DNA of 64,000 bases. It comes from a virus. Its lineage: Duplodnaviria > Caudoviricetes. Made by a program: the position numbers and the translations under genes. The notes under the pieces are model-generated. The model saw only the letters and a list, made by a program, of their open reading frames with translations, had not been told where the DNA came from and made no database searches. Of this stretch, positions 4,693 to 61,269 are shown piece after piece. Position 1 is the stretch's first letter. Every line of letters starts with the position of its first letter. Location of the stretch: the IMG/VR virus record IMGVR_UViG_3300037422_000298. One strand, given 5' to 3'.

Positions 4693-4896
4693 ATGATCAT
4701 GATCGCAGCAAACCTGGGTGACGGTCTCGGCCGTCGTCGTCGTCGCCGTCGCTCTCGCGGCATGGGCGCGCTCCCCACCCTCGTCGGCCGTCGCCGCCGG
4801 GGCAAGGGCAAGCGCCGCGGTCGCAAGATCTGCATCCGCACGGCCGCGGGCAACAAGGTCTGCGGCACCCGGTGGCGCCGCCGTCGCCGGAAGTAG
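4693..4896 (+). CDS. protamine-like Arg-rich small protein
   Basis: AAGAGGA RBS; several poly-Arg runs; followed by a terminator. Confidence 0.75.
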   Translation: MIMIAANLGDGLGRRRRRRRSRGMGALPTLVGRRRRGKGKRRGRKICIRTAAGNKVCGTRWRRRRRK

Positions 4897-4925
4897 GCCC
4901 AGCGTTCCGGCGCTAGCCTGAGAGA

Positions 4926-4960
4926 GGGCCGCGTGCGATACGTCGTACGCGGCCCTTTTT
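4926..4960 (+). terminator. rho-independent terminator
   Basis: GGGCCGCGTGCGA-TACG-TCGTACGCGGCCC followed by TTTTT. Confidence 0.85.
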
Positions 4961-4991
4961 CGTCGATCCACCTTCCCGCGCGGGAGATCTG

Positions 4992-5282
4992 ATGCCCACC
5001 AAGAAAGTGTCCGCAGCCGACCGGCGACACGCCGACTTCATGATCAAGACGCTCGCGCCTGATTTGAAGGCGAGCGGGCGCACGCACACCGCCAAGGATG
5101 TCGCACGCTGCGGGCGCCTCATGAAGTCGGGTGGCCGCGATCGCGGCTACGCCAACTGGCTCAAGCGCACGTTGATCCCAGATCTGCGGGCTTCGGGACA
5201 GAAGTACACCGCGAACGATCTCGCACGCTGCGCGCGTACGATCTCGAATCAGCGCAAGCGCCGGAAGCGAAGGGCGCGCTAA
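4992..5282 (+). CDS. basic protein with internal duplication and Arg tail
   Basis: KTLAPDLKASG..TAKDVARC / RTLIPDLRASG..TANDLARC; GGGAG RBS. Confidence 0.75.
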   Translation: MPTKKVSAADRRHADFMIKTLAPDLKASGRTHTAKDVARCGRLMKSGGRDRGYANWLKRTLIPDLRASGQKYTANDLARCARTISNQRKRRKRRAR

Positions 5283-5512
5283 TGTCGAAGCGCGTCGAGT
5301 TCGCTGACCTGCCTGTCGGCTCCTGCTTCGCGTACGACGCGAGCAGCAAGCACGCCACACGGCGCAAGGTCGACGAGCGCCACACCGTCGTGATCCCCGG
5401 CAGTAAGAAGCCGTTTCGCGTCGACGACGTCGAGACGCGTGTCTTCACGAAGGCCTGTCCCGTCAACTTCGGCCGTCGTCGCAAGCGGCGCCGCACCAAG
5501 AGGAGTCGCTAG
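5282..5512 (+). CDS. small protein with NFG-RRRKRRR tail
   Basis: TAATG coupling. Confidence 0.7.
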   Translation: MSKRVEFADLPVGSCFAYDASSKHATRRKVDERHTVVIPGSKKPFRVDDVETRVFTKACPVNFGRRRKRRRTKRSR

Positions 5513-5514
5513 TC

Positions 5515-5793
5515 ATGGCGAAGAGGAAACGGCGCAGGTCTCTGCGCGGCAGCGAAGATCGCTACGTCGTCAGTGGCCCCGCCACGTGGCGACGCAGCCT
5601 CCACGCGTCGAAGAGTGCAGCGATCGATCAGGCGAAGGCCTGCTCGAAGAAGCATCCCAACGCGGTCTGTAAGGTCACGCAGGGCCTACCCGGCCTGCAG
5701 CGCACCGTCGCCGAGTGCAACCGCAACGAGTGCTGGTCCGCTGATGGCGGCGTCGGCAAGCGTCGGCGTCGTCGGCGCAAGGCGAGGCGCTAG
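5515..5793 (+). CDS. Cys-containing small protein with Arg-rich ends
   Basis: operon spacing; both termini basic. Confidence 0.7.
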   Translation: MAKRKRRRSLRGSEDRYVVSGPATWRRSLHASKSAAIDQAKACSKKHPNAVCKVTQGLPGLQRTVAECNRNECWSADGGVGKRRRRRRKARR

Positions 5794-5795
5794 TC

Positions 5796-58451: not shown

Positions 58452-59092
58452 GTGAACGCGGACGATTCGCGCTTCGCGATCGAGCTGCGCTGGTGGGTGA
58501 TGACGCATCTGCATCGTCGGCACGATGGAACGTACGTGTTCCGCGACGGTGTGTCCTTCGAGAACCTCAGTGCGGCTGTCGAGGCCGCGTGGCTGGCAGG
58601 TGATCAGTGGCTCGCGCTCGAACTGGCCGAGCGCTACAACATGGGCAACGTCCTTTGCTTGCGCTGTGCGCGTGCTTGCAGCGCCAGTACGCGGTTTTGT
58701 AGCCTTTGCGCGCTTCAACACCTCGCGACCCACGCATGAAGCGCGTCGACCTGAGTCTGAGCATCGAACTGCGCCACGAGCGTGATCGTCGGACGACCTT
58801 CGACGGTCATGCGTACGTGTTTCCTGACGGGGTTCGTTTCGAAGACTTTCGCGTCGCACTACAGGCCGCCTCGCTTGTGGAAGACTTTGCACTCGCTGCC
58901 GAGATCGCACGACGCTACGACTTCTACGATTCGATTTGTCTACGCTGCGCGTCGGCGCTGATCGGCGCGACGCCACCGACGCCGACGCACGATCGCAACG
59001 AGTGGATCTTCTACCAGCTCTGTATGAACTGCTGGTCGAAGACGGTCCGAGACTACAGCTCGATGCGAACCGGTGCGCCGACGCCGATATGA
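58452..59092 (+). CDS. two tandem zinc-ribbon paralogs (58452-58739, 58736-59092; family B)
   Basis: IELR..DG.YVF.DGV.FE...A..AA....LA.E.A.RY.....CLRCA in both. Confidence 0.72.
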
Positions 59093-59430
59093 TGCCGCAT
59101 CGCCCAACCGGCGTTGACTTCGAGCACGTAGAGCGACGGCCTGCCGACGTGGCGCAGTGTTTCGGTTCGAGGTTGTGCGTTGTAGACGATTCCCACAACG
59201 CGCATGTCTCCTCCGATGAAGATCATGTCGAGCGGGATCCACGTGTTCCGCATGTAGAATGTGTGGTCAGCTTCGCGACCCATCAGGAATAGCATCCCTG
59301 CGTTGGGGGCTAGATACGGGCGGTACATCAAGCCGCGCCGGATCGCGGCGGGGGTCGAGACGATCTCGACCTGCACGGGGTGGCCGCCGACGAAGACGGT
59401 CGGTTGGCGATGTTGAAGAAGCACTTTCAT
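59053..59430 (-). CDS. DUF192 family protein
   Basis: RGLMYR..L...GMLF, F.MRNT.IPLDMIF, YVLEVNAG. Confidence 0.9.
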   Translation of the reverse strand: MKVLLQHRQPTVFVGGHPVQVEIVSTPAAIRRGLMYRPYLAPNAGMLFLMGREADHTFYMRNTWIPLDMIFIGGDMRVVGIVYNAQPRTETLRHVGRPSLYVLEVNAGWAMRHHIGVGAPVRIEL

Positions 59431-59466
59431 CAAGGCACGAGACGCGGTAAGAGGGACATCGCAATT

Positions 59467-59709
59467 ATGTCTCAGTCCCAAGTAGCAGCACCAGATCGTC
59501 TCACGCCGACGGAGGAAGCAACCGCAAACGCCATCGAAGCCGACTTCGCCAAGCTCTTCGATCGCTGGAGCGAGCGCGGTTTCCCGCGCAACGTCGTTGT
59601 CCCGATGGCCCTCATCGTCGCGGTCGACGCCGCCAAGCGCAACGGCGTCAGTTTCGAGAAGGCCGTCGAGACGCTACAACTGATCTGGCACGGCAACGAG
59701 CCATCGTAA
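59467..59709 (+). CDS. hypothetical protein
   Basis: GAGGG RBS. Confidence 0.55.
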   Translation: MSQSQVAAPDRLTPTEEATANAIEADFAKLFDRWSERGFPRNVVVPMALIVAVDAAKRNGVSFEKAVETLQLIWHGNEPS

Positions 59710-59712
59710 CTG

Positions 59713-60258
59713 ATGGCGCGATCACTGAAGCCGCTCGGGCCGGGTACAGCAACGTTCTCGCCGTGCATGACCTGGCGCTACGAGCTGACGCGAGATCTGT
59801 CGAGGTATCCGCGGCCAACGGAACAGTACCCACCCAAGGGCGTGCTCGTGTCGATTGGCCTGAATCCGTCGACCGCCACCGACGATGATGACGATCCGAC
59901 CGTCCACAAGGAATCGTTCTACACGATCTGGTGGGGCTACGAGCGATTCATCAAAACCAACGCGTACGGATTCCGCGCGACCAACCCGGAAGACATGTTC
60001 GCGGCGCGTGATCGTGGCGTCGACATCGTCGGGCCCGAGAACGATGCCACCATCCTCGCAGCCGTACGACTCGTGCGCGCCCGCGGCGGTCGCGTGCTCG
60101 TCGCGTGGGGCAAGCACATCGAAGCCGAACGTCAGCGACAGATCGCGAAGTTGATCGGCAAGGACGTCTTCTGCATCAAGGTGAACAAGGACGGCACGCC
60201 GTTCCACACGTGTTACGCGCGCAACGACGCCGTTCCGGTTCGCTGGAGCTGTCCCTAG
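59713..60258 (+). CDS. DUF1643 family protein
   Basis: RY.L.R, IGLNPSTA....DDPT, N.Y.FRATNP, G.END, VAWG. Confidence 0.85.
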   Translation: MARSLKPLGPGTATFSPCMTWRYELTRDLSRYPRPTEQYPPKGVLVSIGLNPSTATDDDDDPTVHKESFYTIWWGYERFIKTNAYGFRATNPEDMFAARDRGVDIVGPENDATILAAVRLVRARGGRVLVAWGKHIEAERQRQIAKLIGKDVFCIKVNKDGTPFHTCYARNDAVPVRWSCP

Positions 60259-60850
60259 CTCGACGGCGAACGGTTCTCGGGTGTGAAGAAGTCCTTGAAC
60301 AGCTCGCCGAACGCGCCGAAGACATCCTCGACGTTCTTGACGACGTCGTCGACGCTGTGCGTGAACGTCGAGAGATCCGGCAAGCCGAGCTGCTTGCGGA
60401 TCGCACCAAGCACCTCGACGATCTCTCGACGAAGCCGCTCGGTTTCTTGCGCGTTCTGCATCTCGCGCATGCGCATCTCGACGCGCCACCGTTCGGCCGC
60501 GATGCGCTGCTCGTACTCCTTGGCCTGAAGGCGCAGCAGCTTCTCGATCGCGTCGAACAGCGCTTTCTTGTCGACGTCGGTCATCAGTGCGGGTCCTGCT
60601 GCGCGTTGCGGATCTCGTCGAGCTTCTGCAGAATCATCTCGGCGAACGGCTGTAGCGCCGCCAGGATGGCGTCTCCACTGAGCGCCGCACCACGTGGCGC
60701 GGGTGCTGGCGGCCAGGACGGTACGTGACTCGACTCGATCTTCGTCGTGAACGTGATCTCGATCGGCCCGGTGATCTTGTATGTCTTGACCTCGTTCGAG
60801 GTGTACGGACCCTTCTCGGGCGCGGGCGCAGGAGCAGCTTCGGTTGCCAT
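60255..60850 (-). CDS. two hypothetical genes (60255-60584 coiled-coil; 60584-60850)
   Basis: TGATG coupling. Confidence 0.55.
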
Positions 60851-60909
60851 GGTTCGTCCCGATAAGACTCGGGTCACGAACTGTCAAGGCAGCAAGCCGC
60901 CGAAGGTGA

Positions 60910-61269
60910 CTAGCAGTCGGGCTTCTTGCGCGCCATCCGATTCCCGATCACGCCACCTGCCGCTGCCGCTGCGACTCCAGCGATTCCCGTGAGAAGGCCG
61001 GGCTTGGGCGATGGCGCGCCCGCTGCCTTCTGCAGCGCACGATCTTTGGTCGTGACCAGGAAGAATCCGAGCAGCGTGACGGTCGCGCCGATGGCACCGC
61101 CTGCGACCGTGCCGATCACGCCTCGCGTGCCACGCCGCACCGTCGAGCAGTGTGCCCCGTCGAGATCATCCTCGTTGCCGAACGAATGGTGACGTCGTCC
61201 GAACGAACGGTGCGAACGACGACGCGAACGGCGACGCGCTCGCTCCAAGGGCATCCTGACCTTCTTCAT
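60910..61269 (-). CDS. membrane protein with Arg-rich leader ending SFG-RRHH-SFG and two Gly-zipper helices
   Basis: box promoter with -10 element 7 nt before the ATG. Confidence 0.72.
   Translation of the reverse strand: MKKVRMPLERARRRSRRRSHRSFGRRHHSFGNEDDLDGAHCSTVRRGTRGVIGTVAGGAIGATVTLLGFFLVTTKDRALQKAAGAPSPKPGLLTGIAGVAAAAAGGVIGNRMARKKPDC

Follow-up and report, generated by a model that had tools for sequence, protein, structure and literature searches.

A directional hydrophobic-glycine motif bounds putatively detachable poly-basic tags on unrelated proteins of an uncultured bacterial virus

Results

In a 64,000-nt stretch of DNA from an uncultured virus (IMG/VR record IMGVR_UViG_3300037422_000298; hereafter the window), eight or more unrelated families of small proteins share a common layout, and most of them are encoded in one operon headed by a palindrome. 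Judged from their sequences, each consists of a predicted folded body plus one or more poly-Arg/Lys tags. Glycine immediately precedes a C-terminal tag or closes an N-terminal leader, and a hydrophobic residue (L, F, V, M or I) stands one position before it, or Leu or Met two positions before it. Our comparisons support a motif that is directional and conserved and that bounds apparently detachable poly-basic tags on unrelated proteins, and we are confident that it is real and functional. The most economical reading, which we regard as evenly balanced, is that the motif would be a protease site cut after Gly. Below, PhiG denotes a hydrophobic residue plus Gly, a slash marks the putative cut point, P1 is the Gly before it, and genes are named by their start coordinate in the window.

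The virus has a high-GC genome of ~240 kb (62% GC in the window) and a bacterial host, and a self-trained codon model called 120 genes in the window. Megablast with 20 kb of the window returned no near match among deposited phages. A query with the C-extein of a GP88-like protein retrieved seven IMG/VR loci that are syntenic with the window (74-84% identity); because L004 and L007 coincide, six of them are distinct. One relative, G002 (221,422 bp, 100% complete by CheckV), was read whole. The window is thus a member of a clade of uncultured ~220-240-kb, 62% GC bacterial viruses. The tagged genes themselves are real, being syntenic and conserved at the protein level in the six distinct relatives and in dozens of metagenome proteins.

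The initial annotation had proposed that unrelated proteins share this motif at the junction between the body and a poly-Arg tail or short leader. All strings that it quoted are present at the genes it named, the 61269 case lying on the minus strand, and binomial tests in the window and in G002 confirm that the Gly motif is enriched at basic-tag junctions. Among Lys/Arg runs of at least four residues in the window, Gly occupies position -1 in 8 of 21 (1.7 expected, p=1.4e-4) and PhiG stands before 5 of 21 (0.5 expected, p=7.5e-5); in all seven Gly cases that are not N-terminal, position -2 is hydrophobic or position -3 is Leu/Met. For runs of at least three in G002, the corresponding counts are 37/195 for Gly (17.1 expected, p=7e-6) and 14/195 for PhiG (4.7 expected, p=3e-4). 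Direction matters as well: PhiG followed by a basic run occurs 14 times in G002, compared to 3 times for the swapped order (G-Phi, then basic) and 4 times for the mirror arrangement.

Could such a pattern be an artefact of composition? A genome of 62% GC has abundant Gly and Arg codons, many of its off-frame open reading frames are Arg-rich, and composition alone should yield a PhiG dipeptide roughly every 57 residues; several of the leader cases do lie at chance level. Against this, the binomial tests and direction controls reject chance, and synteny and conservation across six distinct relatives and dozens of metagenome proteins are not what spurious reading frames would give. The tails use a mixture of Arg codons (CGT/CGC/CGG/AGG/AAG) and hence did not arise by repeat slippage either. 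For the core set the artefact explanation is refuted, and we consider it extremely improbable.

The tags are short and intensely charged, with +7 to +11 in 8-12 residues, whereas whole bodies carry +3 to +8. They account for most of the positive charge of the tagged proteins, which reach +0.4 charge per residue. The operon that encodes most of these proteins (4.6-10.5 kb) is headed by the palindrome GATCGC-N4-GCGATC (4583..4598), a putative promoter, and further copies at 9708, 11041, 12163, 14884 and 61287 precede other tagged genes. Perfect copies number 12 in the window and 36 in G002. Tagged genes are modestly enriched in palindrome-box operons (odds ratio 4.0, p=0.027 in the window; odds ratio 2.2, p=0.033 in G002); the initial annotation had suggested a test of box-driven against early genes.

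We compared the proteins of this operon, all encoded on the plus strand, with their homologues and found that the core families keep the junction Gly; lack of conservation would have spoken against the motif. The 76-aa protein 5282 (5282..5512) has a body that ends in CPVNFG and a 12-residue tail of charge +10. Residues F63, G64, R65 and R66 are invariant in seven sequences (FG/RR in 7/7), PhiG is present in 8/8 distant representatives drawn from different 50%-identity clusters and in 15/15 overall, and the spacer from the last core Cys to the Gly varies from 4 to 6 residues. The 92-aa protein 5515 (5515..5793) is bounded on both sides, with a leader MAKRKRRRSLRG/S, a 69-aa body and the end GGVG/KRRRRRRKARR. 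Both G12 and G81 are invariant in all 26 homologues. At its N-terminal junction P2 is hydrophobic in 15 of 26 (Leu, Phe or Ile), Ala in one, and Arg with Leu at P3 in 10; at the C-terminal junction it is Val, Met, Leu or Phe in 25 of 26. The P1' residue is Ser, Ala, Thr or Asn at the first joint and Lys or Arg at the second. This body occurs behind at least four different N-terminal modules.

Other members of the operon follow the same pattern. The 110-aa protein 5796 (5796..6128) carries a leader MAGRKRRRRGLG/SS, a body and the end MTG/RRRRKARR, and both junctions are conserved. In the Lys/Arg-rich 164-aa protein 9212 (9212..9706), which ends in TPLRG/RRRK, the TPLRG is kept in all relatives and what follows it varies (RRRK, TGKRKRK, TRKSSK, GSRSK). 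The 105-aa protein 10215 (10215..10532) ends in EDFG/RRKKSRKRRRRR, with (F/L)G/(R/K) in 4 of 5 homologues, and the 151-aa protein 9758 (9758..10213) has a conserved QQ(L/F)G/D before its C-terminal transmembrane helix. Two internal sites, GDGLG/R7 and TLVG/RRRR, interrupt the 65-aa protein 4699 (4699..4896; net charge +26; Arg-rich end). Both are conserved in six distinct relatives, and the predicted products resemble short basic peptides. Finally, the 117-aa protein 6400 (6400..6753) comprises an N-domain ending in RGSFG/A and a 45-aa module that ends in a basic tract; its SFG/A aligns with GLG/T in L004 and GLG/S in L005, at the domain joint.

The leader and linker cases listed in the initial annotation divide. 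Those at 6400 (SFG/A), 9758 (QLG-D) and 12195 (GLG/D) are conserved. NLG-A (9758) and SLG-A (12195) are unconserved in homologues, TFG-A (44975) is unconserved in the G002 homologue, and SLG-E (6756) falls within an N-terminal domain that is conserved uniformly, not at a junction. About a third of these cases are at chance level or unconserved. WIG-A at 14960, listed there among the tail or basic-end cases, does not hold up in homologues either. For GLG-Q (51048), MFG-A (51527) and RRAIG-D (57220), no homologue was found for comparison.

Relatives differ in whether the bodies are separate or fused, and in the fused variants the bodies are always joined through the motif. The 6400 N-domain is fused to the 5796 body via KRSGLG/SS in L005, and to the 10215 domain, which forms the C-terminal half, via RGLG/T in L004. 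The 5282 body is joined to the 5515 body via SFAG/AGG with loss of both basic tracts (P0112), and to the 6400 C-module via SSLG/R (P0136). Additionally, the 5515 body follows a 6400-like domain via GRMLG/AG (P0128) and, in five proteins, a 55-aa domain via AHLRG/T. Because the spacer length varies and the motif joins bodies in fusions, PhiG is a short linear motif and not a fold element. Bodies that are found either fused or separate, with the motif between them, show a polyprotein-like behavior, as would be predicted of polyprotein cleavage sites.

The basic cluster (about 7-9.5 kb of each locus in L001-L006) is itself a hotspot of module shuffling in which order, presence and fusion state differ from relative to relative. 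The genes that flank it stay syntenic across L001-L006.

These comparisons also bear on whether the tags are removed at all. They might stay in place as DNA-condensing or membrane-binding arms and form phage chromatin or internal proteins similar to protamines or histone tails, with PhiG acting as a hinge or cap, no cleavage taking place, and the C39 peptidase described below doing something else. Proteins with up to +0.4 charge per residue suit such a role. So does the fact that the composition of the tails, though not their sequence, is kept in every homologue, that some tails lack Gly, and that no homologue among ~60 sequences ends exactly at the Gly. However, a hinge could do without a particular hydrophobic residue in front of the Gly and would not have to abut the first basic residue exactly, and a spacer of varying length ahead of the motif speaks against a structural cap. 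The motif also persists where the basic tract has been lost, as in the SFAG/AGG of P0112, and it occurs in a non-basic context at the N-terminus of the C39 peptidase, where 22 of 44 sequences have LG/D. We consider permanent arms possible, though rather unlikely.

If the motif is instead a cleavage site, a candidate enzyme is encoded nearby. Gene 16504 (16504..17133, plus strand; on a 241-kb contig) specifies a stand-alone C39 cysteine peptidase of 209 aa, in the order N-terminal PhiG, catalytic domain, linker PRRRRTTLG/Q, transmembrane helix and RRRK. The protein matches PF03412 at 51.6 bits (cut-off 22; E 1.1e-13) and PF13529 at 42 bits, and its family profile finds ComA (5e-8) and LahT (4e-6) in the PDB. 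Residues Q21/Q22, C28, H112 and D128 are invariant in 44 homologues and align with the QxxxxxCG, HY/HF and DP motifs of ComA. In an AlphaFold 2 (AF2) model the papain-like core has a predicted local distance difference test score (pLDDT) above 90, and Foldseek matches the model to the peptidase domains of ComA, PCAT1 and LahT (3k8u, template-modelling score (target) 0.89, root-mean-square deviation 2.3; 6v9z, root-mean-square deviation 1.8; 6mpz, template-modelling score 0.84). A search that covered proteins of 114-366 aa returned 62 close homologues with 49-100% identity and lengths of 168-272 aa, nearly all ~200 aa. No ABC transporter adjoins the gene. As a query against viral contigs the protein matched no locus; among the relatives found through the GP88-like protein, it is conserved together with the tagged genes in all that are long enough to cover it.

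Both copies of the motif within the peptidase are conserved. The N-terminal PhiG is followed by Asp, Glu or Gln just before the catalytic domain in 41 of 44 homologues (LG/D in 22). The linker reads P-basic-x-x-Phi-G before the transmembrane helix, with Gly in 41/44, a P2 that is hydrophobic throughout (Leu 26, Phe 17, Val 1) and a free P1'. The suggestion of the initial annotation that a C39 peptidase bears the same motif twice is therefore borne out, by hidden Markov model match, catalytic triad and fold and by conservation across the 44 homologues. Together, the sequence and the model indicate that 16504 is a genuine C39 peptidase, predicted to be catalytically intact and membrane-anchored. 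Two further homologues are uninformative: the distant P0064 is an archaeal chromosomal gene, and the homologue in the 595-kb phage LR756511 has neither the transmembrane helix nor tagged neighbours.

How well would this enzyme fit the proposed sites? Characterized C39 domains cut after Gly and need Gly at P2 (GG/GA/GS), with a narrow pocket, and their substrates bear a leader helix whose positions -4, -7 and -12 are hydrophobic (PMC6363468). The proposed substrates would be non-canonical for C39 because they have a bulky P2 and no helical leader. In papain-fold enzymes generally, specificity is set chiefly by S2, which in staphopains is hydrophobic (PMC10254297); the strictly hydrophobic P2 and free P1' of the 16504 linker would fit a papain-fold substrate. 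In the literature we found no report of a C39 peptidase in phage maturation or of poly-Arg-tagged phage proteins.

The mismatch in P2 leaves room for the motif being cut by another enzyme, such as a C1-fold protease, a host protease or a ubiquitin-like-processing enzyme tied to an E1-like gene. G002 encodes a 259-aa protein (9776-10555) with a confidently predicted papain C1-like fold (Atlas predicted template-modelling score 0.88; template-modelling score 0.71 to Peptidase_C1 clusters), and its gene adjoins one that ends in TVAG/RRRR. The same genome has an E1-like ThiF gene together with a 93-aa protein ending in TAFG/R. However, the C1-like protein has no Pfam match, and most of the C1-like domains in its Atlas neighbourhood occur in fusion with peptidoglycan-binding or muramidase domains, suggesting a lysin role, whereas the C39 protein has two conserved copies of the motif at typical self-processing positions. 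We regard cleavage by another enzyme as unlikely.

Kin of the C1-like protein are widespread in phages. The 93-aa protein (its end reading RPKTAFG/R) and the nearby ThiF gene (E 5e-20) lie at 50792-51073 and 53403-53954 in G002. Together they may constitute a ubiquitin-like system of the virus, with a processed end that obeys the PhiG grammar; a search of the relatives for Prok-JAB was negative.

The C39 protein might alternatively be a lysis or cell-wall enzyme, in which case the motif would have nothing to do with it and serve as a targeting signal (to direct packaging, ejection or membrane insertion, for example), read by a receptor without proteolysis. Its model does also match the viral pseudomurein endoisopeptidase PeiR (8z4h, E 8e-7), a weak SLT-like protein is encoded among the neighbouring genes (E 0.04), and relatives tag an M23 peptidoglycan peptidase with TLG/RRRR. 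Yet its best matches in both sequence and fold are true double-glycine peptidases, and no receptor candidate is known, which makes this alternative very unlikely.

Outside the operon, some tagged proteins combine the motif with a transmembrane helix. The 229-aa protein 12195 (12195..12884, plus strand) has a transmembrane helix followed by AAFG/RRYRRR, which is conserved, and a conserved GLG/D after an N-terminal region of variable length. Three adjacent membrane-anchored proteins of G002 share this layout, ending in a transmembrane helix and then PhiG/RRR(R), and one of them is the M23 peptidase. The initial annotation had also placed tags on cargo enzymes. Within the window this is unsupported, the SLG-E of the GP88-like protein being no junction; the relative's M23 peptidase, however, does end in TLG/RRRR. 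The 197-aa protein 57220 (57220..57813, plus strand) has an N-terminal transmembrane helix followed by RRRRAPRRAIG/D, and the ~120-aa protein 61269 (60910..61269, minus strand) has a leader RRRSHRSFG/RRHHSFG/N and a C-terminal transmembrane helix. The 61269 gene starts just downstream of the palindrome at 61287, and its G002 homologue begins MKKATLG/RRRN. In the 85-aa protein 14960 (14960..15217, plus strand; charge +33), Arg runs are found at both ends and the tail follows Ser.

Three further genes of the operon do not show the junction. The 96-aa basic protein 4992 (4992..5282) has a tail Q/RKRRKRRAR without Gly and is an internal counter-example. The 87-aa basic protein 6132 (6132..6395) has no clear PhiG junction, and 6756 (6756..9206) is a GP88-family protein (PF17338, PF14890, PF14528) with a Hint plus LAGLIDADG intein. 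For most proteins of the basic cluster, PHROGs and Pfam return nothing.

The genomes of the clade encode PolA with an intein, ribonucleotide reductase, ThyX, helicases, a HerA-like ATPase, Cas7/Cas8c, Dam methylase and tRNAs; in G002 the HerA/DUF87 ATPase lies at 189878-191599, and Cas7/Cas8c genes are present too. The M23 peptidase and the weak SLT-like protein point to a bacterial host. The window contains two inteins (Hint plus LAGLIDADG), one interrupting the GP88-family protein and the other an AAA ATPase (27345-29474). That of the GP88 protein is absent from most relatives, and L005 has one at another site; the PolA of G002 likewise bears an intein. The AAA ATPase is MoxR-like and is followed, within 27345-30816, by a DUF2201 metallopeptidase-like/VWA protein that has homologues in many jumbo phages. 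At 48474-48626 ARAGORN finds a tRNA-Ile(GAT) and, directly after it, a tRNA-like gene with a four-base anticodon, gatg.

The initial annotation had suggested a search for a jelly-roll as opposed to an HK97 capsid. In the relatives no capsid of any kind was recognized, neither HK97 nor nucleocytoplasmic large DNA virus (NCLDV), and weak jelly-roll-like matches came from one small beta-sandwich protein of the 14358 family. On the minus strand, 13543-13986 and 14358-14816 encode two paralogous proteins of ~150 aa, with a small open reading frame (13996-14349) between them and a further paralogue in G002 (58126-58518). The AF2 model of the 14358 protein (pLDDT 86.5) is a beta-sandwich with a helical insert. 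The fold of this family gives weak matches to jelly-roll-like, plant-virus coat, carbohydrate-binding module and generic beta-sandwich structures (best Z 5.2), with no Foldseek match and no clear solved relative. Two other capsid candidates were rejected: a conserved 769-aa protein is a vWA protein shared with Ackermannviridae-like phages, and a codon-biased 253-aa protein of G002 turned out to be a Gly-rich membrane protein. G002 71919-72680 encodes a Gly-rich membrane protein dense in FG/LG pairs (MFGLDEFG, AAFGRGFG, GQGFG, AHFG).

Discussion

We propose that a cysteine protease of the papain fold (clan CA), encoded by the virus, recognizes PhiG and cuts after its Gly. Cutting would free the bodies from their tags, would separate the bodies that are fused in some relatives, and would yield free, very basic peptides. 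Within the window the best candidate enzyme would be 16504, which would process itself at its two conserved PhiG sites, one preceding the catalytic domain and the other separating it from the membrane anchor. By binding a polyanion, either DNA or acidic lipid, the tags would gather the substrates close to the anchored enzyme. This whole scheme, with clan CA cleavage and 16504 as the best candidate, is plausible if somewhat short of probable; that 16504 in particular is the cutting enzyme seems doubtful, albeit possible.

Several observations count against the scheme. Cleavage is predicted from sequence, and the membership of the tagged proteins in the virion or its core is putative. The conserved Gly could be a hinge beside a permanent DNA- or lipid-binding arm, and some poly-Arg tails have no Gly at all (4992, 14960, and G002 tails in which RRRR follows a transmembrane helix). 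The candidate sites have L, F, V or M at P2, poly-basic flanks and no leader helix, and in the AF2 model the N-terminus and linker of 16504 are of low confidence, disordered and undocked from the active site. Since relatives encode a second papain-like (C1-fold) protease, the C39 protein is not the sole candidate. Finally, Pfam gave no match to Terminase_6N or another terminase, to an HK97 capsid, to a portal or to an NCLDV capsid in two relatives (G001 and G002).

Cutting at these sites, if it occurs, would be the first case of bacterial-virus maturation by Gly-directed cysteine-protease trimming of poly-Arg-tagged modular proteins, and would give the C39 family a function other than peptide export. 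For more than ten proteins the exact mature termini can be predicted from the motif, which thus offers a testable handle on an uncultured clade. Poly-Arg tags that are removable at a two-residue site could also serve as a natural tag-and-release system. In its broadest form the idea is quite improbable: a clade with no recognizable HK97 capsid, portal or terminase would mature modular basic proteins through PhiG cuts made by clan CA proteases, as an independently arisen counterpart of the core maturation of adenovirus and African swine fever virus, and the exposed Gly ends, resembling that of the putative ubiquitin-like protein (TAFG/R), would be conjugable by the E1-like enzyme.

Of the known systems, the PCAT/AMS exporters (ComA, PCAT1, LahT) share with 16504 the Pfam family, the Gln/Cys/His/Asp set and the fold, and they cut after Gly. 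Unlike them, 16504 is a stand-alone protein of ~200 aa with a single C-terminal transmembrane helix and no ABC fusion, and at the sites proposed here a bulky hydrophobic residue takes the place of Gly at P2 and the amphipathic leader helix is missing. Some members, namely 12195 and the G002 M23 trio, also recall the LPXTG, PEP-CTERM and GlyGly-CTERM sorting signals in joining a short motif, a transmembrane helix and an Arg cluster. The order here, however, is helix, PhiG and Arg, compared to motif, helix and basic cluster in the tripartite signals, and most tagged proteins have no transmembrane helix. The window showed no sortase, exosortase or rhombosortase.

Prohead proteases, such as T4 gp21 with its internal proteins IPI-III and phiKZ gp175, are serine proteases that cut after Glu. 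In these systems, too, short terminal targeting peptides on internal or cargo proteins are clipped at a short consensus, but the tags described here are poly-Arg. Prohead proteases of families S77 and S78 (PF03420, PF04586) had no match in G001-G003, a result in which the S77 profile was also silent in control genomes and divergent members could escape.

In African swine fever virus, pS273R cuts at GG/X, and the poxvirus I7 protease cuts at AG/X. Those viruses process fused precursors of structural or core proteins at small Gly sites, which the fused-versus-split variation of the present clade mimics; the protease clan and the motif differ, and the structural role of the proteins described here is putative.

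Adenovirus offers the closest set of parallels and of differences. Adenain has the consensus (M/I/L)XGG/X or (M/I/L)XGX/G, with a hydrophobic residue at P4 (PMC4246237). It cuts the basic core precursors pVII, pX/Mu, pVI and pTP, and the basic pVIc peptide acts as a DNA 'sled' (PMC4246237, PMC4740752). Adenain belongs to clan CE (Ulp1-like) and the candidates here to clan CA (C39 or C1); in our motif the Gly is P1 and the hydrophobic residue sits at P2 or P3, so the sequences do not follow the adenain consensus. The host here is bacterial, and both the cleavage and the location in the virion are putative. The initial annotation had likened these proteins to eukaryotic-virus maturation, and given the differences in protease clan and motif register the likeness is apt as an analogy but not as membership. 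As an analogy it extends over several features: short Gly-centred sites with a required hydrophobic residue nearby, very basic substrates (DNA-associated in adenovirus), precursors trimmed at both ends, and a small precursor that gives rise to a short Arg-rich peptide, comparable to the 4699 protein. In both systems, as proposed here for the second, basic terminal peptides would join enzyme and substrate on a polyanion.

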